A stretch of 32,915 nt of DNA from a virus (taxonomy: Duplodnaviria > Heunggongvirae > Uroviricota > Caudoviricetes): IMG/VR virus record IMGVR_UViG_2526164631_000025, positions 1 to 32,915 of that record. One strand, written 5' to 3'. Both the position numbers and the translations under genes were made by a program. Position 1 is the first letter of the stretch. Each line of letters begins with the position of its first letter. Shown piece by piece: positions 9 through 32,390 of this stretch. The notes beneath the pieces were generated by a model. It had not been told where the DNA came from. It searched no databases and saw only the letters and a program-made list of their open reading frames with translations.

Positions 9-2164
<2,156 letters not shown>

Positions 2165-3891: not shown

Positions 3892-4314
3892 TTAAGCAGA
3901 ATAAGTGGTTGGGATTCTGAGCAGTAATCCAATCTTGGCTATGTGCTCATATGGCAGCTCTCCGGTTTTACCATCATGTATCGAGGCTATCAGATTCAAT
4001 TCTTGCGCCGCTTTACGAATTTCAGTTTCTGATGGAACAAGGCGAAAACCGATGTGTAACATTTTGATATAGAAAGGTAATAGTTCGTACTTCACCCGTA
4101 ACTGTGCTGCCGCATCTTTCAAATCATGGATGATTTCTTGTTTTAAGTCAGAGCGGGGATTCGATAGCTTTGCTTGGTTAGACAATAACAGATGCGATAT
4201 TTCCCCCAACTGTTCCTTGAATGAAATGTAAGACTCAACCCCCTTGATGATGAGTCGACCTAGGACAAAAACGCTTACTCCAGTGACAACAGTGACAAAA
4301 GCAGACGAACTCAT
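3892..4314 (-). CDS. hypothetical membrane-anchored protein (140 aa), AT-rich gene between humD and phd
   Basis: N-terminal hydrophobic helix SSSAFVTVVTGVSVFVLGRLII; lower GC than flanks (rough estimate about 42%); minus-strand TATAAT about 20 nt upstream of the ATG. Confidence 0.55.
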   Translation of the reverse strand: MSSSAFVTVVTGVSVFVLGRLIIKGVESYISFKEQLGEISHLLLSNQAKLSNPRSDLKQEIIHDLKDAAAQLRVKYELLPFYIKMLHIGFRLVPSETEIRKAAQELNLIASIHDGKTGELPYEHIAKIGLLLRIPTTYSA

Positions 4315-4876: not shown

Positions 4877-5028
4877 TACATTGAAAAGGCATAGTTTGTG
4901 AAAGCGGGGTTTGTAAGCAACACCGCTGGCGGCAAGGTCTACGTTCACCTTGTCTCGCTCTTCCTGGCTTTTAGCTGCTATATTTCGATCTGACACAAGA
5001 AACCTCCAGGAGTTAGTGGATCAGGCAC

Positions 5029-5379
5029 ATGCACAATAACGTTCTCAATGTTAGCCGTTCAATTCAGACAATCAGAGACTGCACCAGTGTGGTGGCATCA
5101 ATCCCATTGCGAAACAGCATAGACGAACTGCAAATTCGTGTATTGAATCTGAATCAGGCTAATAAGCAATTGCGCTTTATTTTGACGCTGAAAAGTGAAA
5201 CAGAGGGGATAAAGCACAGCGTAAAAGTGTTTTCTGAGGCCATTCTGCTTAATGGGAAGCTCCGGCATCTGGTAAGGCCAGAACGTCAATATCCTGACGT
5301 CCTGGCGCGTGAAAAAGACCTTCTTTCTGAAGTTCAGGATAGGGTGATCGATTTCGTCAAATGCTATCCCCTGCATTGA
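5029..5379 (+). CDS. hypothetical protein (116 aa), divergent from humD
   Basis: Single long ORF but no convincing SD at the proper distance; AT-rich. Confidence 0.35.
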   Translation: MHNNVLNVSRSIQTIRDCTSVVASIPLRNSIDELQIRVLNLNQANKQLRFILTLKSETEGIKHSVKVFSEAILLNGKLRHLVRPERQYPDVLAREKDLLSEVQDRVIDFVKCYPLH

Positions 5380-5648
5380 GGGCAGGTGTTCCCTTCCGCA
5401 AAGTAGGGAAAACTGCTATCAAGTTCATCACACCATCTGCGATGGTCGTAGCACCAAAACGCCTCCCACGGTGCACGGAAATACTTCATCCACCAGGACA
5501 CCCGATCAGGTATATCTGCTGGTGGCAGTTCTTCTGGCAATAATTTGCCTGATAATTCCCTTTCCGCCCGCGACAGCATTTTTTTGAGGCTCGCGTTCTC
5601 TTTTTCAAGCTCATCTACGCGCACCTGTAATTCAGCTTTCGTTGGCAT
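5364..5648 (-). CDS. hypothetical protein (about 94 aa), coiled-coil N-terminus and Cys/Trp-rich C-terminus
   Basis: ATG at 5648 preceded by GAGG; the ORF track start at 5729 is a TTG; ends ...GNTCPQCRG. Confidence 0.4.
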   Translation of the reverse strand: MPTKAELQVRVDELEKENASLKKMLSRAERELSGKLLPEELPPADIPDRVSWWMKYFRAPWEAFWCYDHRRWCDELDSSFPYFAEGNTCPQCRG

Positions 5649-7171: not shown

Positions 7172-7927
7172 TTAAACTGCTAGTTGCAATTGCATTTCAA
7201 AGCGGTCGCGTTGTTCACAATACGCAAGAGAACCAGGGCTATTGTGTGCCTCAATCCGTTCTACCATTAATGCTGCGCGTGTCTCTTTACTTGCAGGTGC
7301 ATAAGCCCCAGACCAGGCTTTATCAATACCGATGTTTCGAGCGACGTTCGTACTATCTGCGCTGGCTAAGGGTAATTTTGTGAATATCAGCGGATTTAAC
7401 ATGCGCAATCCATGTAGTTTCGTAACCGGCTGACCATGCCCATCAACAATGTGACGAATCAGGTCTTTCATTCTGGCTACCGCAAGAGTTGGGCGCTTTA
7501 CGTCATAGTCGCCACAACTACCGATAGCCACTCGCGGAAGCTCATTGCACAAATGAATAAATCGCTCGTCACTTTCATTCATGTGCCACACTGGAACGCC
7601 AGCTAGTTTTCCGTGAGGCCACTCATTCAGAAGCGCATCATTTTCCTCCTCTCCGCCATCAATAACATCCGGGATAATGGCAAAATCGAATCCTGGGTGA
7701 TTCTTCCAGCGAGCAACAAACTCGTAGTAATCGCTCCAGTCGATTTTGTTTTTGCCAGCTGCTTTCCAGGCGGTGAATGCACCGTTGTCCAGCGCGAACG
7801 ACTGACAGTATTCAGCCGCGAGATTGATCTGGCCTGAATGCGCAAAACTGATAAACGCATGTCGCCCTTTCCATGCTCTCATTGCGCACGTATCAGGAGT
7901 AATAGGCCCACCGTGGTAGTGAATCAT
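7172..7927 (-). CDS. hypothetical protein (about 251 aa)
   Basis: ATG at 7927 one nt after the upstream stop, preceded by a perfect AAGGAG; N-terminus MIHYHGGPITPD. Confidence 0.6.
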   Translation of the reverse strand: MIHYHGGPITPDTCAMRAWKGRHAFISFAHSGQINLAAEYCQSFALDNGAFTAWKAAGKNKIDWSDYYEFVARWKNHPGFDFAIIPDVIDGGEEENDALLNEWPHGKLAGVPVWHMNESDERFIHLCNELPRVAIGSCGDYDVKRPTLAVARMKDLIRHIVDGHGQPVTKLHGLRMLNPLIFTKLPLASADSTNVARNIGIDKAWSGAYAPASKETRAALMVERIEAHNSPGSLAYCEQRDRFEMQLQLAV

Positions 7928-7928
7928 C

Positions 7929-8444
7929 TCACTCTCCTTTGATGCGAATGCCAGTAGCGCGGATTGCATCGATGACTTCAGAAACTTTGTATGCCATTAC
8001 CGTTTGGTAATCATCGTGAAAATCTGTTCGATGAAGCATGCTGCTACGTTCCGGGAGCAGTATTTCCCGCTCCTCCAGTTCAGCAATACGCTTGCTCCCA
8101 TCAGAGATAACGCCTTCGTAATATTCACGCTGCTCGTTGAGTTTTGATTTTGCTGCTTCAAGCTCAACACGCAGTTTCCCTACCGTTAGCGCAATATCCT
8201 CGTTCTCCTGGTCGCGGCGTTTGATGTATTGCTGGTTTCTTTCCCGTTCATCCAGCAGCGCCAGCACGGTTTCTGGTCCGGTCAGAAATTTGAAGGCGTT
8301 GAGCGCATCAATATCCACACCGTAATCTTTAAGTTCCTGTTCACTTAACAAATCATCATCAACTGGCAACATTAACAGGCGTTCCATTGCTGGAGTTGCA
8401 CGTTCTGCCGCCTCACGCAGTGCCTGGTAATTAATTTTGCTCAC
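7929..8444 (-). CDS. Ead/Ea22-like coiled-coil protein
   Basis: N-terminus MSKINYQALREAAERATP and a coiled-coil block LTVGKLRVELEAAKSKL shared with paralogs in this window. Confidence 0.6.
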   Translation of the reverse strand: MSKINYQALREAAERATPAMERLLMLPVDDDLLSEQELKDYGVDIDALNAFKFLTGPETVLALLDERERNQQYIKRRDQENEDIALTVGKLRVELEAAKSKLNEQREYYEGVISDGSKRIAELEEREILLPERSSMLHRTDFHDDYQTVMAYKVSEVIDAIRATGIRIKGE

Positions 8445-8781
8445 TGACTGCCTCCTTCTTAATCAGTTTACACAGGTGCTCCACAGCCACAGAGAGTGCA
8501 TCCACCGCTCGTTTATCCAGACGCGGGGCCAGAGCAAGCAGTTCATTTATTGCAATCTGAATACCATGCTCCGCCGCCAGCGCCGCGCGATTGCTCTCCA
8601 GCTCTGCAATTTGGCACATGGCATCAATATTTTTGTCCTCCAGGCGCTTAATTTCGCCTAGGAGTGCCAGTGCCACCGATGGCGTGAACGCCATACGAAA
8701 CGCCACAAAATTTTGATGCATAGGTTCTGTTTCTACTGCAACTGCCGCATCTCGCAGTGCCTGATAGTCAATTTCGCTCAC
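8431..8781 (-). CDS. Ea22-like coiled-coil paralog (about 116 aa)
   Basis: GTG start with GGAGA SD; SEIDYQALRDAAV and IAELESNRAALAAEHG modules. Confidence 0.5.
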   Translation of the reverse strand: MSEIDYQALRDAAVAVETEPMHQNFVAFRMAFTPSVALALLGEIKRLEDKNIDAMCQIAELESNRAALAAEHGIQIAINELLALAPRLDKRAVDALSVAVEHLCKLIKKEAVSEQN

Positions 8782-9529
8782 TGGTTGTCTCCACAAAATT
8801 CAATGCTGCATGCTCCTGTTTAATTCCCATACGCTCTAATGCGATACGAAAAATTTCTGGATCTTTTTCTATTCCTGTAAATCGGCGCCCTGATTGTTGG
8901 CACGCAACGCCAGTAGTTCCGCTACCCATAGTGAAATCCAACACTGTGTCGCCAATATTGCTATATGTCTCAATCAGATATCTCACCAGAGCCAGTGGCT
9001 TTTGTGTTGAATGAAGTGCCTGCTTTTGCTTGTCGCTGGAGAATTTCTGCACGTCTCTCGGATAGCGACTTGTTGAATCGTAAACGACCTTTTTCAGCGC
9101 ATCGCCATATACATCAGTATTCAGCCTACCTCTTGTTGAGGTTTTTCTGGCGTGCCCATACGTCATCTGTGGGTTGTATGTCGGTTGCTTTCTGTAAAAA
9201 ACTTCAATATTTTCATGCGCTCTTAAAGGTTGTTTTTTTGCGTTCAAAAATCCTGTCGCGTGTGGCTTTTCCCAAATCCATTCTGTTTTCCAGTCACGAA
9301 GATTGCTGTTGACCAGCACGCTGGTAAAAGGCTGAGCGGAAAACAGAACAATTGCAGCGTTCGGTTTGGAAATACGGTAAATCTGCTTCCACATCAACTG
9401 CAGGTCGAGAACAGAATCCCAGCGACACCGAGTTGTTCCATATGGAATATCGGCACATACAAGATCTACGGAGTTGCTGGCGATTTGCGGAAAGATGTCA
9501 AAGCAATCTGCGTTGTGAAGGCAAATCAT
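8768..9529 (-). CDS. orphan DNA methyltransferase, beta-class N6-adenine/N4-cytosine type
   Basis: Motif IV-like DIPYG near the N-terminus and motif I DFTMGSGTTGVA near the C-terminus (beta-class order); no adjacent restriction endonuclease. Confidence 0.8.
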   Translation of the reverse strand: MICLHNADCFDIFPQIASNSVDLVCADIPYGTTRCRWDSVLDLQLMWKQIYRISKPNAAIVLFSAQPFTSVLVNSNLRDWKTEWIWEKPHATGFLNAKKQPLRAHENIEVFYRKQPTYNPQMTYGHARKTSTRGRLNTDVYGDALKKVVYDSTSRYPRDVQKFSSDKQKQALHSTQKPLALVRYLIETYSNIGDTVLDFTMGSGTTGVACQQSGRRFTGIEKDPEIFRIALERMGIKQEHAALNFVETTSERN

Positions 9530-11013: not shown

Positions 11014-11111
11014 AATGCATACCGACTCTGTTTTGTTCCGAGCGGTAAAATAATATGTTAGAAAACTAAAATCAATGTTCTAACGCAATTTTGAGTGCGT
11101 AAATGATTTGA

Positions 11112-16256: not shown

Positions 16257-16373
16257 GTCCTCCAAACAGTTATCAGGAATGATATTAATGTTTTGTGTTA
16301 GAAAATCAATTTTGAATATCTAATCATTTTGATCAATCATAGAAAAATCGCTGAAAAGTAAGAGGCAGCCATC

Positions 16374-17450: not shown

Positions 17451-17499
17451 AATACTGACTGTTGCGCCCTGGCATTATCGTGGGGTATATTTCTACGGC

Positions 17500-17740
17500 A
17501 CCTTAGAAAAACGGGTGCCGGGATTGGAACCCCGGATAATGCAAAAGGCGACACAGACGCCGAAAGCGTCTTTTTTTGTGTCATGCCATCGCACAGCCAT
17601 ACGTAGCGTTTAGCTCAGAGATCAATGGTAGTGCTGGCTGGGCTGCCGAAAGGCAGGCCGGTTCCCTTTTGCGCCGGTAGTTCCAACCCAGTCAGTGCTA
17701 CCGCCATTGAGATTGGAACCTCACGCGGTAGCTCCTTAAA
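17500..17740 (+). ncRNA. putative c4-type antisense RNA / structured leader upstream of icd-like gene
   Basis: ORF-free stretch with hairpins, an internal terminator, GATTGGAACC repeats at 17521-17530 and 17711-17720 and complementary GGTTCC/GTTCCAA between them; sits directly upstream of icd-like and antirepressor-like genes as in P1 immI. Confidence 0.3.
17556..17577 (+). terminator. rho-independent terminator
   Basis: GACGC-CGAAA-GCGTC hairpin followed by T7. Confidence 0.55.
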
Positions 17741-17762: not shown

Positions 17763-17978
17763 ATGGCTACTATCCCTACCCCAACTCATTCTGAATTTAT
17801 CTGGCGTTTCTATTCCTGCCAAAAACACCTGTATATCTGCGTCATGGCTGCTACCGAAGCAGAAGCTCGTTCATACCTTCCTGAAGAACCCTGCATTTTT
17901 GCCGCACGCTTCACTCTTGATGCGATGGAGATCCTAAATTACTGGAATCTGCCAATGAACTGCGTGGAGGTGCACTGA
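17763..17978 (+). CDS. Icd-like small protein (host cell division inhibitor Icd-like family)
   Basis: 71 aa with FIWRF...ATEAEAR...FAAR pattern recalled from Icd-like proteins; AAAGGAGG SD; stop overlaps the next start. Confidence 0.5.
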   Translation: MATIPTPTHSEFIWRFYSCQKHLYICVMAATEAEARSYLPEEPCIFAARFTLDAMEILNYWNLPMNCVEVH

Positions 17979-18919
17979 TGAATCTGTCCATCTCTCAAAA
18001 AGCGACAATGACCAGTATTGAGATCGCGGAACTGGTAGGTAAGCGTCATGATAATGTGAAGCGTACCATTGAAGTATTAACTAAAGGTGGTGTCATTCAA
18101 TTTCCTCAAATTGAGGAAATTGAAAATAAACAATCAGTTGGCCCTCGTCGATTTTCCAAGGCTTACATATTTGAAGGCGAACAAGGAAAACGAGACAGCA
18201 TCATTGTCGTCGCGCAGCTCTCTCCGGAATTCACCGCCCGGCTGGTGGACCGCTGGCGCGAACTGGAGAATGCCCGGGTACAGTTAAAATCAAAAGCCGA
18301 AATTCTGGCTGAAATGGCGCAAATGCATCTTGAGCATGAACGCCGGATCAACGCCGTAAATGCCCAGGTAGCCGAGGTATCAGCACAAGTATCGATGGTC
18401 GCTGAAACACTCGAGCAAATCAAGAAAGGCAATATTCCGGAAGGCTACATTGGCTACCGCCAGCTGGCGGCGAAATGTGGCCTGACTGAAGCCAAATGTC
18501 GCAACCTGGTTAACGCTTTCCGGATTCCCACCGATACACATGAGTTTTTAACTCCAGATGGTTTGCTTGCGCGACGCTCCATTGTGGCCCTGGTCCCCTT
18601 CCGGAAAGCCTTTAAGCAGGTGATGTCGGAGGCAGAACCACGCAATAAACGCTGGTATCATCCAAAGATGGGGATGTTTCAGGCAATCCACCATCCTGTG
18701 CCTGAAAGCCCAAAGGATAATCTGTCACTACATACCGTCAGAGAGAAGATCAGGACTGGATACGCAACAGTGTGTCGTCGTTCTTCCTGGCCTGAAGGTA
18801 TATGGGTGTGGCCCGAAGGTGGATCACGAAAGCACTGGCGCACCATCCGTGACGGGAAAATCCATGCTATTGATTTAGCTCCAGAGGATGTTATTGCTAT
18901 GGACTGGATTGTTAGTTAA
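17978..18919 (+). CDS. Rha-family phage regulatory / antirepressor-like protein
   Basis: N-terminal TSIEIAELVGKRHDNVKRTIEVL matches the Rha N-terminal signature; 313 aa. Confidence 0.6.
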   Translation: MNLSISQKATMTSIEIAELVGKRHDNVKRTIEVLTKGGVIQFPQIEEIENKQSVGPRRFSKAYIFEGEQGKRDSIIVVAQLSPEFTARLVDRWRELENARVQLKSKAEILAEMAQMHLEHERRINAVNAQVAEVSAQVSMVAETLEQIKKGNIPEGYIGYRQLAAKCGLTEAKCRNLVNAFRIPTDTHEFLTPDGLLARRSIVALVPFRKAFKQVMSEAEPRNKRWYHPKMGMFQAIHHPVPESPKDNLSLHTVREKIRTGYATVCRRSSWPEGIWVWPEGGSRKHWRTIRDGKIHAIDLAPEDVIAMDWIVS

Positions 18920-21379: not shown

Positions 21380-21470
21380 TAGACTGGCCCCCTGAATCTC
21401 CAGACAACCAGTATCACTTAAATAAGTGATAGTCTTAATACTAGTTTTTAGACTAGTCATTGGAGAACAG

Positions 21471-21836
21471 ATGATTGATGTCTTAGGGCCGGAGAAACGC
21501 AGACGGCGTACCACACAGGAAAAGATCGCAATTGTTCAGCAGAGCTTTGAACCGGGGATGACGGTCTCTCTCGTTGCCCGGCAACATGGTGTAGCAGCCA
21601 GCCAGTTATTTCTCTGGCGTAAGCAATACCAGGAAGGAAGTCTTACCGCTGTCGCCGCCGGAGAACAGGTTGTTCCTGCCTCTGAACTTGTTGCCGCCAT
21701 GAAGCAGATTAAAGAACTCCAGCGCCTGCTCGGCAAGAAAACGATGGAAAATGAACTCCTCAAAGAAGCCGTTGAATATGGACGGGCAAAAAAGTGGATA
21801 GCGCACGCGCCCTTATTGCCCGGGGATGGGGAGTAA
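21471..21836 (+). CDS. insC: IS2 transposase OrfA (InsC)
   Basis: 121 aa [41 protein letters not shown]... Confidence 0.95.
21788..21794 (+). promoter_or_regulatory. IS2 programmed -1 ribosomal frameshift heptamer A_AAA_AAG
   Basis: Heptamer in the insC frame at the insC/insD overlap. Confidence 0.8.
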
Positions 21837-22699
21837 GCTTAGTCAGCCGTTGTCTCCGGGTGTCGCGTGCGCAGTTGCACGTCATTCTCAGACGAACCGA
21901 TGACTGGATGGATAGCCGCCGCAGTCGTCACACTGATGATACGGATGTGCTTCTCCGTATACACCATGTTATCGGAGAGCTGCCCACGTATGGTTATCGT
22001 CGGGTATGGGCGCTGCTTCGCAGACAGGCAGAACTTGATGGTATGCCTGCGATCAATGCCAAACGTGTTTACCGGATCATGCGCCAGAATGCGCTGTTGC
22101 TTGAGCGAAAACCTGCTGTACCGCCATCGAAACGGGCACATACAGGCAGAGTGGCCGTGAAAGAAAGCAATCAGCGATGGTGCTCTGACGGGTTCGAGTT
22201 CTGCTGTGATAACGGAGAGAGACTGCGTGTCACGTTCGCGCTGGACTGCTGTGATCGTGAGGCACTGCACTGGGCGGTGACTACCGGCGGCTTCAACAGT
22301 GAAACAGTACAGGACGTCATGCTGGGAGCGGTGGAACGCCGCTTCGGCAACGATCTTCCGTCGTCTCCAGTGGAGTGGCTGACGGATAATGGTTCATGCT
22401 ACCGGGCTAATGAAACACGCCAGTTCGCCCGGATGTTGGGACTTGAACCGAAGAACACGGCGGTGCGGAGTCCGGAGAGTAACGGAATAGCAGAGAGCTT
22501 CGTGAAAACGATAAAGCGTGACTACATCAGTATCATGCCCAAACCAGACGGGTTAACGGCAGCAAAGAACCTTGCAGAGGCGTTCGAGCATTATAACGAA
22601 TGGCATCCGCATAGTGCGCTGGGTTATCGCTCGCCACGGGAATATCTGCGGCAGCGGGCTTGTAATGGGTTAAGTGATAACAGATGTCTGGAAATATAG
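21794..22699 (+). CDS. insD: IS2 transposase OrfB (InsD, DDE integrase core; expressed as an InsCD fusion)
   Basis: 301-aa frame matching IS2 InsD as recalled. Confidence 0.9.
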
Positions 22700-28603: not shown

Positions 28604-29253
28604 AGCGTAGAGCGCAAATTGTTGGAACTGTGCACCCGGCAGGGCTTATGCGTGCTCAAGTCCGTGTTTTACCTGACTGGAATGGCGTTCCTGATGACGA
28701 TCTACCCTGGGCGGAATACCTGTTACCCATCGGAAACGCTTTTGTACCCACAGTCAAAGGTGACCTGGTCTGGGTAGAGTTTCCTTATTTAGATGTTAAC
28801 GGTCGAATAGACACCAGACGCCCAATGATAGTTGGTGCCGCTCAGGATGCACCGGGAGGAATTCCAAACGTTGCACCAGAAGCATCTGGCAAAGGCAACG
28901 GCTGGACGCCGCCGGAAGTAGATGGAGCACCTCCCCGCCCCCAAATCTCAGCAACGAAAGACTTCGTTATTCACCGCAACAATATTCTTGAAGTACGAAC
29001 TGCTGGTGGCGGCTATGAAATTGCCAATACGGCAGCAGGCTCAAGGATTGGCATGAATGAGTCCGGGCAGATATATATCATTGGTCCGGCTGATGTAATC
29101 GTGAATGCAGGAGGGAGTGTTAACGTCAAATCAGCCAACAACATCAATGTTAATGGGGAAAATATTGCTGTCACCGCTAACGGGGACATAGCTTTCAAGG
29201 CAGGGGGAACCTTTCAGGCCACTGCTGGCAACTTCGATTTCAAGAAAGGATAG
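28600..29253 (+). CDS. gpV/gp5-type OB-fold baseplate spike-like protein (217 aa)
   Basis: N-terminal pattern G.V...G...V.V...DWNG...LPWAEYLLP.G...VP.VGDLVWVEF resembles the P2 gpV OB domain; C-terminal Gly/Asn/Val-rich repeats suggest a beta-helix. Confidence 0.5.
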   Translation: MKRRAQIVGTVHPAGLMRAQVRVLPDWNGVPDDDLPWAEYLLPIGNAFVPTVKGDLVWVEFPYLDVNGRIDTRRPMIVGAAQDAPGGIPNVAPEASGKGNGWTPPEVDGAPPRPQISATKDFVIHRNNILEVRTAGGGYEIANTAAGSRIGMNESGQIYIIGPADVIVNAGGSVNVKSANNINVNGENIAVTANGDIAFKAGGTFQATAGNFDFKKG

Positions 29254-29262
29254 AAAATGCAC

Positions 29263-29306
29263 CCATTTGTGTTAGATAATTAACGCGTATTTTCTAACAC
29301 AAATGG
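29263..29306. promoter_or_regulatory. perfect 14-bp inverted repeat overlapping the rdgC-like RBS
   Basis: CCATTTGTGTTAGA (29263-29276) and TCTAACACAAATGG (29293-29306) separated by a 16-bp AT-rich spacer; the right arm abuts the SD/ATG of the 29313 gene. Confidence 0.6.
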
Positions 29307-29312
29307 TGAGAA

Positions 29313-30218
29313 ATGAGATCAGTCGCTTTCAAAAATATCTTCATCTATCGTCTTTCACGCGAAGTTAGCTGGGATACTGCAGAAGTAAATGCAGCCCTTA
29401 GCAAGTTTGTGTTTACCCCATGCGGTTCTCAGGATATGGCTAAAGCTGGTTGGACCTCCGTTCTTGGTGACAACCTCACACATGAATACCAGGGTTTTCT
29501 GCTAATACAGCATAAGCGAGAAGAAAAAATTCTCCCCTCGCAGGTGCTCAAGGAAGAGTTGCAGAAAAAAGTCCTGAAACTCGAAGAAGAGCAAGCCCGC
29601 AAGCTGAAGAAAACGGAAAGAGACAGTCTTAAAGATGAAGTCCTGCATTCACTTTTGCCTCGCGCGTTCACGAGAAAATCACTTGCCAAAATCCTGATCG
29701 ACCGCAGCAACCATCTGGTATTCGTTGAGGCAAGCAGCGCCAAAAAGGCAGGGGACCAGCTGGCTTTATTGCGAAAATCGCTCGGCAGCCTGCCTGTCAT
29801 TCCATTCACACCACGCGAACCGCTGGAAATTACAATGACCGAGTGGTTTAAAAGCGGCTTCCCTGCCGGATTTACAGCAGGTGAAGACGCCACATTAAAG
29901 GGTCTGCTCGATAATGGTGGTGCCGTTCGCTGCAACAAAGTTGATCTACAGTCCGACGAGATTATGTCTCACATTGAGGCGGGGAAAGTAGCTACGACCG
30001 TTGCAATTAACTGGATGGAACGCGCGTCGTTCAGAGTCAACGATGATATGAGTATCAAAGCCCTGACATTCTGTGATGATCTCTATGACCAGAATGACGA
30101 TATCGACCGGGAGGATGTAGCACAACGATTTGATGCTGATTTCGTGCTCTTTACGGGCGAATTATCTGCACTGTTTAACGCGCTGGTGGAGGCCATTGGC
30201 GGTGAAGCAGAACGTTAA
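29313..30218 (+). CDS. rdgC: RdgC-like recombination-associated protein
   Basis: 301 aa with [42 protein letters not shown] and [15 protein letters not shown] blocks matching E. coli RdgC as recalled. Confidence 0.85.
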
Positions 30219-32358
30219 CCTTCGATATGGTTCAGTTTGCAGTGGAATTGAAGCCGCGAGCATTGCCTGGGAACCGTTGGGTATGCGTCCGGCGTGGTTT
30301 GCTGAAATTGAGCCTTTTCCATCTGCCGTTCTTGCGCACCGCTGGCCTCATATCGCCAACCTTGGCGATATGACAAAACTTGCCAAAAAAGTCCTGGCTG
30401 GGGAAATCGAATCCCCTGATGTGCTCGTCGGGGGAACACCTTGTCAGGCATTCAGTATCGCGGGATTACGTGGTGGGCTTGATGATGAGCGCGGCGCGCT
30501 AACTTTGAAGTATGTGGAGCTTGCAAATGCAATTGACGACAAACGGTCTGAGTCCTTCCTCAAACCGACAGTTATCGTCTGGGAAAATGTCCCAGGAGTC
30601 CTGTCATCGGCAGATAACGCCTTCGGATGTTTCCTTGCCGGATTGGCTGGAGAAGATGCACCATTTGAACCAGGTGATCGACCTGAATCAGGAAAAAGTA
30701 ACGCGTTCTGGCGGTGGGATGGCAAAACCGGTTGCCATGCTCCAAAGTGGCCGCAGTGTGGTTGTATTTATGGACCGCAGCGAAAGGTGGCCTGGAGAAT
30801 ACTTGATGCCCAATACTTCGGAGTGGCACAACGACGCCGACGCGTGTTTGTTGTCGCAAGTGCTCGAACAGACCTCGATCCCGCAACGGTACTTTTTGAG
30901 TTCGAAGGCGTGCGCCGGGATATTGCGCCGAGCAGAGGCGAGGGGAAGGAAGTTGCCGGAAATGTTGGAAATGGCATTAAAAGCGGGAGCCATTGGGATA
31001 ACCCTGTAAATCCTCACCCGACACTTGCCCGATCGCACAATACCGGCGGGACGGGTGCAAGCAACCAGGAGATTTTTTCACAGCGCGGAAGTGGGCTTGT
31101 CGGTGCTTACCGGATGGTAGCATTTGGTGAGTATGCGGATGATGAGGCGGCTTCCACGGTCAAGGCCAGAGATTTTAAGGATGCAACCGACCTGGCTGTT
31201 TTTGACAGTGCGAACGTCGGAGTGGCAGTACGTCGCTTAACGCCTGTCGAGTGCGAACGCCTGCAGGGCTTTCCTGACGGGCACACGTTGATCCCTACGG
31301 AAAAGCGTAAAAAAGTTTCTTCAGATGAACTGGCATACCTTCGCAATCACTATCCAGATTTAAGCGAAGAAGAGGCCGCGATGCTTGCAGCTGACGGACC
31401 GCGTTACAAAGCGATCGGCAACAGCATGGCAGTTCCTGTTATGCAATGGATAGGGTGTCGCATTCTTGCGACCGTAGCGGATAAACAGCAAAAAACAATA
31501 AATACCATTACCTACACAAGAAAACTCCGGACTCCGGATGAATATGAACGCCCAATATTCAAATGGGTAGGCGGTAAATTCTCAGAGTTGCCTACAGTGC
31601 TTGAGCATCTACCACACGGCAAGCGGTTAATAGAACCATTCGTTGGTGGCGGTTCCGTATTTACGAATGCAGGATTTCGCCACAACCTGCTTAATGATAT
31701 TAACGGTGACCTGATTAACTTCTATCAGACATTGCAGCGAGAGGGACATTCGCTCGTCACGCTGGCATATAGTTTTTTCAAAAATTACAACAACGCTGAC
31801 GCTTACCTCGAAGTGCGCGAGGCATTTAACAGAGGAAAGTATGACCAGCTACATCATGCTGCCGCCTTTTTGTACCTTAATCGGCACTGTTTTAATGGCG
31901 TAACGCGGTACAACCAAAATGGCGAGTTCAACGTGGGGTATGGCAAATACAAAGCGCCCTACTTCCCACATGCAGAGATGGAGGCATTTTTGGCTGATGA
32001 CGTACTCAAAAACACGTCCTTTGTATCAGGTGACTTTGCTGGCGTCATCGAGGCGGCTGGTGAAGGCGATGTGATTTTTTGCGATCCGCCGTATGAACCG
32101 CTGCCGGATACAGAAGGGTTTACCAGTTATTCAGGAAATAGCTTCCGTTTCGACGAACAGAAACGGCTGGTATCTCTATTGGTGGAAGCCCACCAGCGCG
32201 GCGCTAAGGTAGTGATAACAAATAGTGGTGCGCCAAACATCCGTGAACTATATGAACGAAACGGGTTTAAAGTACATCATATGGCAGCCAGACGGTCGGT
32301 GTCCTGCAAGGCGTCAACACGTGTAGTTGCTAACGATATAATTGCAATAATGAAGTAA
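30202..32358 (+). CDS. bifunctional DNA methyltransferase: N-terminal C5-cytosine domain fused to C-terminal Dam-like N6-adenine domain
   Basis: C5 motifs [47 protein letters not shown]; Dam-like KWVGGK and CDPPYEP; proposed GTG start at 30202 with GGAGG 9 nt upstream (the ORF track start at 30130 would overlap rdgC by 89 nt). Confidence 0.8.
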
Positions 32359-32360
32359 AA

Positions 32361-32390
32361 AACGCCGCAGTAGCGGCGTTTACTTTTTTA
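32361..32390. terminator. bidirectional rho-independent terminator between the methyltransferase gene and glnS
   Basis: CGCCGC-AGTA-GCGGCG hairpin with T-run on the plus strand and A-run upstream. Confidence 0.65.

Follow-up and report, generated by a model that had tools for sequence, protein, structure and literature searches.

We consider it very likely that the locus described here corresponds to hrdC(rdgC)-dmt, an operon belonging to the P1 phage family, and that it resides in a D6-like phage-plasmid with the roles proposed below. It lies in a viral sequence of 32,915 nt (IMG/VR record IMGVR_UViG_2526164631_000025), designated here the window; the positions of its features are collected in Table 1. 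For P1 and D6, earlier descriptions cover the rdgC-dmt pair as well as its architecture and phage-plasmid context, and RefSeq already contains the exact sequence.

Table 1. Position of the rdgC-dmt locus, its domains, motifs and putative signals, and of the second methyltransferase gene, in the window.
Feature	Position	Strand	Description
Orphan beta-class methyltransferase (N6_N4_Mtase)	8768..9529	-	253 aa; in the ead/Ea22 accessory-gene region
Weak sigma-70-like promoter match	29251..29280	+	TAGAAA, 18 nt, GATAAT; 9/12 positions
Perfect 14-bp inverted repeat	29263..29306		CCATTTGTGTTAGA, 16 nt, TCTAACACAAATGG
rdgC (hrdC homolog)	29313..30218	+	301 aa; Pfam, NCBIfam, PHROG and PDB matches
dmt	30202..32358	+	718-aa predicted bifunctional DNA methyltransferase; GTG start
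C5-cytosine methyltransferase domain	30202..31491	+	aa 1-430; motifs, Pfam, TIGR00675, AlphaFold2
C5 motif I, VCSGIE	30235-30252	+
C5 motif IV (PCQ)	30433-30456	+
C5 motif VI, ENV	30583-30591	+
C5 motif VIII, QRRRR	30829-30843	+
Hypervariable target-recognition region	30919..31227	+	aa 240-342, 103 aa; between motifs VIII and IX
C5 motif IX	31231-31272	+
C5 motif X, GNS	31417-31425	+
Dam motif KWVGGK	31561-31578	+
Dam-type (D12 class) N6-adenine methyltransferase domain	31564..32298	+	aa 455-699; Pfam, TIGR00571, E. coli Dam
Dam motif FVGGG	31639-31653	+
Dam motif DPPY	32083-32094	+
Bidirectional intrinsic-terminator-like hairpin	32360..32381		9-bp stem, 6 GC pairs, T-runs on both strands

The rdgC-dmt pair and its phage-plasmid setting

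The first gene of the pair had been predicted to be an rdgC homolog, and its product indeed covers the full Pfam profile PF04381 (E 5.2e-102; 341.6 bits, cut-off 25), surpasses the cut-off of the NCBIfam equivalog NF001462 (381.6 bits versus 330) and matches PHROG 724 (E 1.7e-123). It is closer to the host protein (59% identity to E. coli RdgC, PDB 2owl; E 4.7e-109) than to P1 HrdC (52% identity). The fusion methyltransferase is encoded directly downstream, as the original prediction stated, the two genes being translationally coupled, with the GTG start codon of dmt and the stop codon of rdgC overlapping by 17 nt. This arrangement is recurrent: rdgC precedes a methyltransferase cassette and Dam in all 29 IMG/VR loci encoding an RdgC with at least 68% identity, of which 25 are of the D6 type and four are fused.

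The resemblance to the hrdC-dmt genes of P1, put forward at the outset, was corroborated by direct comparison. In P1 (YP_006536 and YP_006537), the RdgC-family gene also overlaps a downstream gene for a C5-then-Dam fusion, which has the same GTG-type start overlapping the upstream stop, and both elements share a phage-plasmid lifestyle. The two Dmt proteins are 69% identical overall (BLASTP, 1060 bits, aa 7-717 of the window protein), reaching around 99% in the first 245 aa and around 75% in the Dam half. A suspected swap of the domain order with respect to P1 proved wrong, as P1 Dmt contains PF00145 (aa 8-135 and onward) followed by PF02086 (aa 493-725). From the shared domain order and the 69% identity, the locus is taken as an ortholog of P1 hrdC-dmt. 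Nevertheless, the recognition region of the C5 domain comprises 103 aa in the window versus 147 aa in P1, with a different sequence, and the Dam half is of the D6 type, unlike that of P1. The window also lacks the uhr gene and the Op68 operator found upstream in P1, showing instead baseplate genes and a different inverted-repeat motif.

Phage D6 contains orf65-orf64-orf63 (MF356679) in the same position, with the order baseplate genes, rdgC, methyltransferases and glnS, and its DNA is 95% identical to that of the window in rdgC and 98.7% in the Dam part. However, D6 carries a non-homologous 226-aa methyltransferase-like ORF (PHROG 757, without a Pfam match) in place of the C5 domain, and a separate 301-aa Dam, whereas Dam is fused in the window.

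This stretch is 100% identical to three E. coli plasmids in RefSeq (NZ_CP035876.1, NZ_CP117014.1, and NZ_CP066033.1), and the window shares synteny with phage D6 and several circular plasmids (90-97 kb) and carries phage genes for tail and baseplate, the anti-repressor Ant, the c4 antisense RNA and a phage-borne glnS. By identity, synteny and gene content, it is a D6-like, P1-related phage-plasmid of E. coli, and not an island, as it had been called. The gene dmt has baseplate genes on one side and glnS, convergent with it, on the other. Since glnS is usually chromosomal, its proximity could suggest a chromosomal genomic island whose orphan methyltransferases serve the epigenetic control of host genes; however, D6-like phage-plasmids carry glnS as conserved cargo (D6 record; PMC6799933), and both the synteny and the tail, baseplate, Ant and c4 genes speak for a phage-plasmid, making an island barely conceivable. 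Elsewhere in the window, the PHROG label of "queuine tRNA-ribosyltransferase" for positions 7172-7969 was set aside, as it has no backing from Pfam, NCBIfam or PADLOC.

Start codon, domains and catalytic motifs of Dmt

The list of open reading frames starts dmt at TTG 30130, but GTG 30202 is the reading homologous to the start of P1 dmt; it is preceded by GGAGG 9 nt 5′ of it. Identical 718-aa Dmt proteins occur in many contigs of about 90 kb.

The domain annotation agrees with the predicted fusion of a full set of C5 motifs to a Dam-like domain with KWVGGK and DPPY, with Pfam supporting two catalytic domains. DNA_methylase (PF00145) matches the N-terminal part in two stretches (E 5.4e-37), and all six diagnostic C5 motifs (I, IV, VI, VIII, IX, and X) are present. 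The description of this domain as Dcm-like stands for the C5 methyltransferase superfamily (TIGR00675, 116.4 bits, cut-off 100.65) and fails for the Dcm subfamily (NF007772, 23.7 bits versus a cut-off of 710). An AlphaFold2 model of the C5 domain from 46 diverse homologs had a mean pLDDT of 77, with most of the core above 90, and its best Foldseek matches were to M.HhaI (probability 1.00); a model of the full 718-aa protein from 13 close relatives was discarded (pLDDT 33).

The C-terminal part of Dmt matches MethyltransfD12 (PF02086, E 1e-55), TIGR00571 dam (246.7 bits, cut-off 114.85) and, over aa 450-718, E. coli Dam (2g1p, E 1.1e-58). It shares the D12-class fold and motifs with the Dam proteins of E. 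coli and T4, although in these Dam is not the C-terminal domain of a fusion, and it scores below the NCBIfam equivalog cut-off for the host Dam (239 bits versus 441). The positions contacting GATC in E. coli Dam are largely retained: the residues equivalent to K9, N120, R124, N126, and Y138 are conserved, and the position of Y119 is occupied by F in both P1 Dmt and the window Dmt.

We know of no demonstration of C5 methylation by P1 Dmt. It could be argued that function is limited to the Dam half, the C5 domain being a vestigial passenger and the protein, in effect, a phage Dam. In the P1 record, dmt figures as a bifunctional methyltransferase acting on GATC and "perhaps" on C5 cytosine, which leaves the second activity conjectural, and current papers call dmt an N6-adenine methyltransferase; phage D6 does without the C5 domain. 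Moreover, PGAP starts the gene at ATG 30283 in the identical plasmid copies, which would eliminate C5 motif I, and both sequenced laboratory strains of P1 have an unusual W in motif IV (VWGTPCQ). Against this, PGAP chose the GTG start in five related plasmids, and the window retains all six motifs intact, with the canonical GGTPCQ, and thus G and not W, in motif IV. The dN/dS values of the C5 core (0.05-0.17) are low, like those of Dam (0.07-0.09), so both catalytic cores are under purifying selection. Likewise, the catalytic residues are invariant across Dmt alleles, whose variation is confined to the recognition region, and some widespread alleles bear an intein exactly at the catalytic Cys. 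We therefore consider it unlikely that Dmt acts solely as a Dam, and favor a bifunctional enzyme.

Flanking signals, proposed roles and the apparent absence of a restriction partner

A perfect inverted repeat lies between the stop codon of the baseplate gene (29253) and the start of rdgC. It consists of two inverted copies of a dispersed motif, T(G/A)TGTTAGAAAAT. This motif has 14 sites in plasmid pB2C_96, versus 2.8 +/- 1.7 in shuffled sequences, and five in the window, two of them forming a second inverted pair at 11054/11075. The repeat is kept in D6 and in five plasmids, the outer stem showing compensatory changes, and folded as an RNA hairpin it reaches -21.3 kcal/mol (z -5.2). In P1, dmt is found downstream of hrdC under the C1 operator Odmt, according to its record, and has the C1-controlled promoter Pdmt, with operator Op68. 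A search for the P1 C1 operator sequence allowing up to three mismatches retrieved no match; in our own comparison, the motif coincides with the reverse complement of this operator in 10 of 14 positions. From the dispersion of the motif and this resemblance, the inverted repeat is a putative bivalent operator of the C1-type repressor of the phage. The -10 box of a weak sigma-70-like promoter falls within the left arm of the repeat; this is a consensus match only, and such matches are no more abundant in the region than in shuffled sequences. At the other end, the rdgC-dmt unit finishes at the terminator-like hairpin that separates dmt from the convergent glnS.

We propose that release of the C1-type repressor from the putative bivalent operator just upstream of rdgC probably turns the operon on. 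By homology, RdgC would form a ring-shaped dimer, bind double-stranded DNA and restrain RecA. The Dam domain would methylate GATC, as P1 Dmt does, and thereby free the phage from any need for host Dam in lytic replication. In P1, this methylation licenses both the cleavage of pac and packaging. According to a review (PMC12707154), P1 requires pac to be methylated at GATC and cannot do without dmt in dam- hosts. However, there is no P1-like pac cluster of GATC sites in the window, and the only cluster in the full plasmid, five GATC in 132 bp within a pacA-like gene, is not significant (30% of random placements). A methylation-gated pac like that of P1 is therefore only hypothetical for D6-like elements. 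The C5 domain, in turn, would add m5C at a short target, which its recognition cassette would determine, and this modification would shield phage DNA from methylation-sensitive restriction in new hosts.

The second methyltransferase of the window, unlinked to dmt, conforms to its prediction as a beta-class enzyme: it matches N6_N4_Mtase (PF01555, E 4.1e-29) and PHROG 67, and shows motif IV (DIPY, aa 27-30) before motif I (FTMGSGTTG, around aa 199-207), which is the beta-class order. It is 100% identical to AdsM from the P1-like phage JL22, and we propose that it is an independent orphan phage enzyme that, like Dmt, would serve anti-restriction or self-marking.

One or both methyltransferases could instead provide the modification function of a restriction-modification system, with the nuclease encoded elsewhere on the element. 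In PADLOC, both enzymes match the Type II methyltransferase models as well as they match the orphan models, a DUF968/HNH protein is encoded two genes away from the second methyltransferase, and P1 carries a Type III restriction system, although an unrelated one. However, Pfam, PHROG, NCBIfam, and PADLOC detected no restriction nuclease among the neighbors of either methyltransferase or the other ORFs of the window, nor was any listed for the whole identical plasmid pB2C_96 in its gene tables, which are incomplete in PLSDB; the lack of a visible cognate endonuclease for either enzyme, noted from the sequence at the outset, thus extends to both sources. In addition, dmt is enclosed by baseplate genes and glnS, the best PADLOC match of its Dam part is an orphan model, and DUF968 is common in lambdoid and P1-family phages, with or without a methyltransferase. 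A restriction-modification system is, in consequence, highly improbable, and we retain the interpretation of both enzymes as orphans.

Mosaic structure of dmt and variation in the recognition region

The C5 core of dmt shows 98% DNA identity to P1, and from position 31528 onward, in the Dam half, the sequence becomes of the D6 type. By these identities, dmt is a recombinant of a P1-type C5 core and a D6-type Dam half.

Dmt alleles range from 677 to 870 aa, a variation due to the segment between motifs VIII and IX. In the window, alignment and module dissection divide this recognition region into a module "a", a module "b" and a short tail; in the AlphaFold2 model of the C5 domain it has a pLDDT below 50. 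The region is 70% identical to its equivalent in the methylase of Vibrio phage CP-T1 but only 49% to that of P1, and the same cassette occurs in the P1-backbone allele P0091. As judged from these alignments, the C5 recognition segment is a swappable, cassette-like hypervariable region. We rejected the 718-aa allele as a recent deletion mutant: it shows only 95.8% DNA identity to the longest allele upstream of the junction, and it is found in many contigs and in both P1-type and D6-type backbones.

This variability recalls the Bacillus phage enzymes M.SPRI, M.Phi3TI, and M.Rho11sI, phage-borne orphan C5 methyltransferases with a constant core and interchangeable recognition modules, a likeness of design. 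The longer Dmt alleles contain several "TL"-type units, for which they can be compared to the multispecific Bacillus phage enzymes, a concept cited in PMC12707154; searching the literature for coliphage C5 enzymes with multiple specificities yielded nothing pertinent. Modules are present or absent among alleles, and the variable region of 103 aa in the window is of monospecific size. Similarity between modules is weak, with z above 3 in two of 54 pairs and a mean z of 0.6, and with the module repeats lacking statistical support, the idea of tandem recognition domains stays a hypothesis. We thus advance only tentatively, as a possibility that we do not favor, that the C5 half of Dmt is modular and cassette-exchanging, equivalent in enterobacteria to the SPR/phi3T enzymes of Bacillus phages. 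Long alleles would then be multispecific, P1-like and D6-like phage-plasmids would exchange recognition modules with each other in an arms race against the restriction systems of their hosts, and the window would hold a minimal allele with one or two modules. As a corollary, the fact that P1 Dmt has long gone without an assigned C5 activity could derive from a G-to-W change in motif IV peculiar to laboratory P1 strains.

Natural alleles with a canonical motif IV, including that of the window, offer better prospects of identifying the m5C target than laboratory P1 does, and it should be considered that some RefSeq copies are annotated from the start codon that deletes motif I. More broadly, the exchange of recognition cassettes across two phage-plasmid lineages would tie the host range of elements carrying resistance genes to the evasion of restriction.

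Architecture of the rdgC-dmt unit

The original prediction of an RdgC homolog followed by a 718-aa fusion of a C5-cytosine and a Dam-like methyltransferase was borne out. The rdgC product is a full-length RdgC of 301 aa (Pfam PF04381, E 5.2e-102; NCBIfam equivalog NF001462, 381.6 bits against a cut-off of 330), and its stop codon (TAA, 30216–30218) overlaps by 17 nt the start of dmt, a long ORF that encodes 718 aa if read from the GTG at 30202. This GTG lies 9 nt downstream of a GGAGG sequence, corresponds by homology to the GTG at which P1 dmt is annotated to begin, and is also the PGAP choice in five related plasmids. The start assigned by PGAP in three plasmids that are 100% identical to the locus (ATG 30283; 692 aa) leaves out C5 motif I and probably reflects a misannotated start codon.

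Domain searches, which had been proposed as the check for two catalytic domains, supported both of them: a C5 DNA_methylase domain (Pfam, E 5.4e-37; TIGR00675, 116 bits, cut-off 100.65) and a D12/Dam domain at aa 455–699 (Pfam, E 1e-55; TIGR00571, 246.7 bits, cut-off 114.85). The C5 motif set is complete (I, IV, VI, VIII, IX, and X), as are the Dam motifs KWVGGK, FVGGG, and DPPY; the glutamate in motif I is unusual, yet it is the norm in the subfamily. An AlphaFold2 model of aa 1–430 had a confident core, with M.HhaI as the best PDB matches (probability 1.00), and a low-confidence recognition region (pLDDT below 50). In an alignment with E. coli Dam, the window enzyme keeps the residues matching K9, N120, R124, N126, and Y138, which are known for their roles in Dam-DNA structures; where it departs from E. 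coli Dam at the remaining contact positions, P1 Dmt largely does the same. Purifying selection acts on both catalytic parts (dN/dS of 0.05–0.17 for the C5 core and 0.07–0.09 for Dam), and the low values for the C5 core count against a dead C5 domain.

Features of the window (nucleotide positions, or residues of Dmt for the C5 motifs)
Feature	Position	Strand	Remarks
Second methyltransferase	8768–9529	-	beta-class N6/N4
isrK	17498–17576	+	Rfam, 62.5 bits
c4 antisense RNA (P1-type)	17621–17708	+	Rfam, 76.7 bits
Ant anti-repressor	17978–18919		downstream of isrK and c4
Inverted repeat	29263–29306		perfect, 14 bp; upstream of rdgC
rdgC	29313–30218	+	301-aa ORF
dmt	30202–32358	+	718 aa from GTG 30202
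Terminator-like hairpin	32360–32381		bidirectional; closes the rdgC-dmt unit
C5 motif I	aa 12–17		VCSGIE
C5 motif IV	aa 78–85		GTPCQAFS
C5 motif VI	aa 128–130		ENV
C5 motif VIII	aa 210–214		QRRRR
C5 motif IX	aa 344–357		
C5 motif X	aa 406–408		GNS

Relationship to the P1 and D6 phage-plasmids

The likeness to the P1 hrdC-dmt arrangement was confirmed: the P1 and window Dmt proteins align end to end with 69% identity, and the P1 record places dmt downstream of uhr and hrdC, with a C1-controlled promoter, Pdmt. P1 Dmt (754 aa), scanned likewise, also has the C5 domain first and Dam second, so that the supposed swap in domain order does not exist. Identity is ca. 99% over residues 1–245 and ca. 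75% in the Dam half, with a divergent segment separating motif VIII from motif IX. In the P1 record, dmt is given as bifunctional, with GATC adenine methylation and “perhaps” C5 methylation. According to a recent review (PMC12707154), P1 depends on GATC methylation at pac and cannot do without dmt in dam- hosts.

Codon 77 of P1 dmt (positions 4214–4216 of the P1 sequence L001) is TGG (Trp) in both sequenced laboratory P1 strains, resulting in VWGTPCQ in motif IV, and the window has GGG (Gly) at this site (30430–30432). None of the 267 retrieved family proteins with a readable motif has Trp there (GG in 259, AG in seven, and GE in one), and this residue might be the reason why P1 Dmt has no assigned C5 activity. 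With respect to the neighboring gene, window RdgC is closer to chromosomal RdgC from E. coli (PDB 2owl; 59% identity, E 4.7e-109) than to P1 HrdC (52%), which hints at a separate capture or at fast divergence of RdgC in the two phage-plasmid lineages.

Although called an island in the original prediction, the window is a D6-like phage-plasmid rather than a chromosomal island. It shares synteny with phage D6, in which tail/baseplate genes (the homologs of P1 genes 7, 24, 6, and 5) are likewise followed by rdgC, the methyltransferase gene(s) and glnS, a known cargo gene of D6-like phage-plasmids (D6 record; PMC6799933) that lies here from 32407 onward; window positions 29313–32358 recur with 100% identity in three circular E. 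coli plasmids (96–97 kb), and the window carries a P1-type c4 RNA and Ant. Together with isrK, the latter two form a P1-type immI region. The phage-plasmid backbone is interrupted by an IS21-type insertion sequence (75–1875, minus strand; IstB and a transposase with an rve domain) and by a second one (21426–22699, plus strand; transposase pair, PHROG 157).

At this place D6 has a methyltransferase-like ORF of 226 aa, which is non-homologous but shares its first four codons with the window gene, plus a separate Dam. This ORF (orf64; positions 4890–5570 of the D6 sequence L002), present also in most D6-like viral contigs, replaces the P1-type C5 domain; its product shows C5-like motifs (DFTG, PPCTD, and ENP), but neither a Pfam match nor a recognition domain. 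In all 29 IMG/VR loci with an RdgC identity of 68% or more, rdgC is followed by the D6-type (25/29) or the fused (4/29) arrangement; where RdgC is more distant (ca. 55% identity), no methyltransferase gene comes directly after it. The rdgC-dmt locus represents the hrdC-dmt module already known from the P1/D6 family of phage-plasmids, and its exact sequence is already in RefSeq.

Restriction partners, regulation and predicted roles

The second methyltransferase gene does encode a beta-class enzyme; it is 100% identical to adsM from the P1-like phage JL22, is a member of a large orphan methyltransferase family found in phages and is surrounded by ead/Ea22 accessory genes. The claimed lack of a cognate nuclease also held: no restriction nuclease families appeared among the neighbors of either methyltransferase or the other window ORFs, nor in the (incomplete) gene tables of the whole identical plasmid NZ_CP035876.1, so both enzymes stand as orphans within these tables. 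A nearby DUF968/HNH protein was rejected as a candidate, being a common phage gene product and not a known restriction enzyme. Beside the Ead/Ea22 genes, a 265-aa ORF (7172–7969, minus strand) matched PHROG 887, “queuine tRNA-ribosyltransferase” (E 3e-103), a label that may be unreliable because Pfam, NCBIfam and PADLOC gave no match.

The inverted repeat preceding rdgC is kept in relatives, with compensatory changes in the outer stem, and each arm contains the 13-mer T(G/A)TGTTAGAAAAT (29268–29301). There are 14 sites for this 13-mer in NZ_CP035876.1, vs. 2.8 ± 1.7 in shuffled sequences, and five in the window (11054–11087, 16294–16306, and 29268–29301), including two inverted pairs spaced 21 bp, the second one at 11054/11075. 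The 13-mer is similar to the P1 C1 operator read in reverse complement, although the operator itself was absent in a search at up to three mismatches. The dispersed 13-mer may be the operator set of a D6-type master repressor; from its inverted disposition, over-representation and likeness to the C1 operator, we infer that rdgC-dmt would be an early operon under repressor control, like its P1 counterpart.

From its kept residues, the Dam domain is predicted to methylate GATC; the C5 domain is predicted to add m5C at a short target set by its recognition cassette. Together, the two methylations would tag phage DNA as it replicates, serving to control packaging and to shield the DNA from restriction, and RdgC would moderate RecA. 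A search of the window and the identical plasmid demonstrated no P1-like pac site in the D6-like lineage. NZ_CP035876.1 has a single GATC cluster (86291–86422; five in 132 bp), which is not significant alone. Several of its sites occur as ATGATCC, and it lies ca. 320–450 nt into a pacA-like gene (455 aa) upstream of a terminase-like gene, a position matching that of the methylation-controlled P1 pac site.

A mosaic gene with a variable recognition region

Window DNA matches D6 across rdgC up to 30218, then diverges, and is again 98.7% identical from 31528 through the Dam domain; the C5 core between these stretches shows 98% DNA identity to P1. Judging from these D6-like flanks and the P1-like core, dmt is a recombinant with a junction in the inter-domain linker.

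Fused Dmt proteins from P1-like and D6-like elements span 677–870 aa, or up to 1148 aa with an intein at the catalytic Cys, and differ in length solely in the segment that separates motif VIII from motif IX. This segment consists of modules that are present or absent depending on the allele, each with a TL-type motif ahead of a hydrophobic strand, and similarity among modules is weak. The window region comprises 103 aa (module a, module b, and a short tail) and was the shortest among the eight alleles first aligned, with alleles of 677 and 680 aa being shorter still. It occurs unchanged in an allele from a P1 backbone (P0091), and shows 70% identity to its counterpart in the Vibrio phage CP-T1 methylase vs. 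49% to that of P1. In the wider subfamily (94 cluster representatives), motifs VIII and IX lay 91 to 419 aa apart, excluding one regex artifact; in the window the distance is 129 aa. The inteins (Hint, with or without LAGLIDADG) reside inside motif IV in widespread alleles, such as P0118 (1148 aa) and P0120 (960 aa), with the catalytic Cys as the +1 extein residue (GGTP|C...HN|CQAFS).

The recognition region of the C5 half is cassette-like and possibly multispecific; some novelty resides only in this region and in the motif IV residue of laboratory P1.
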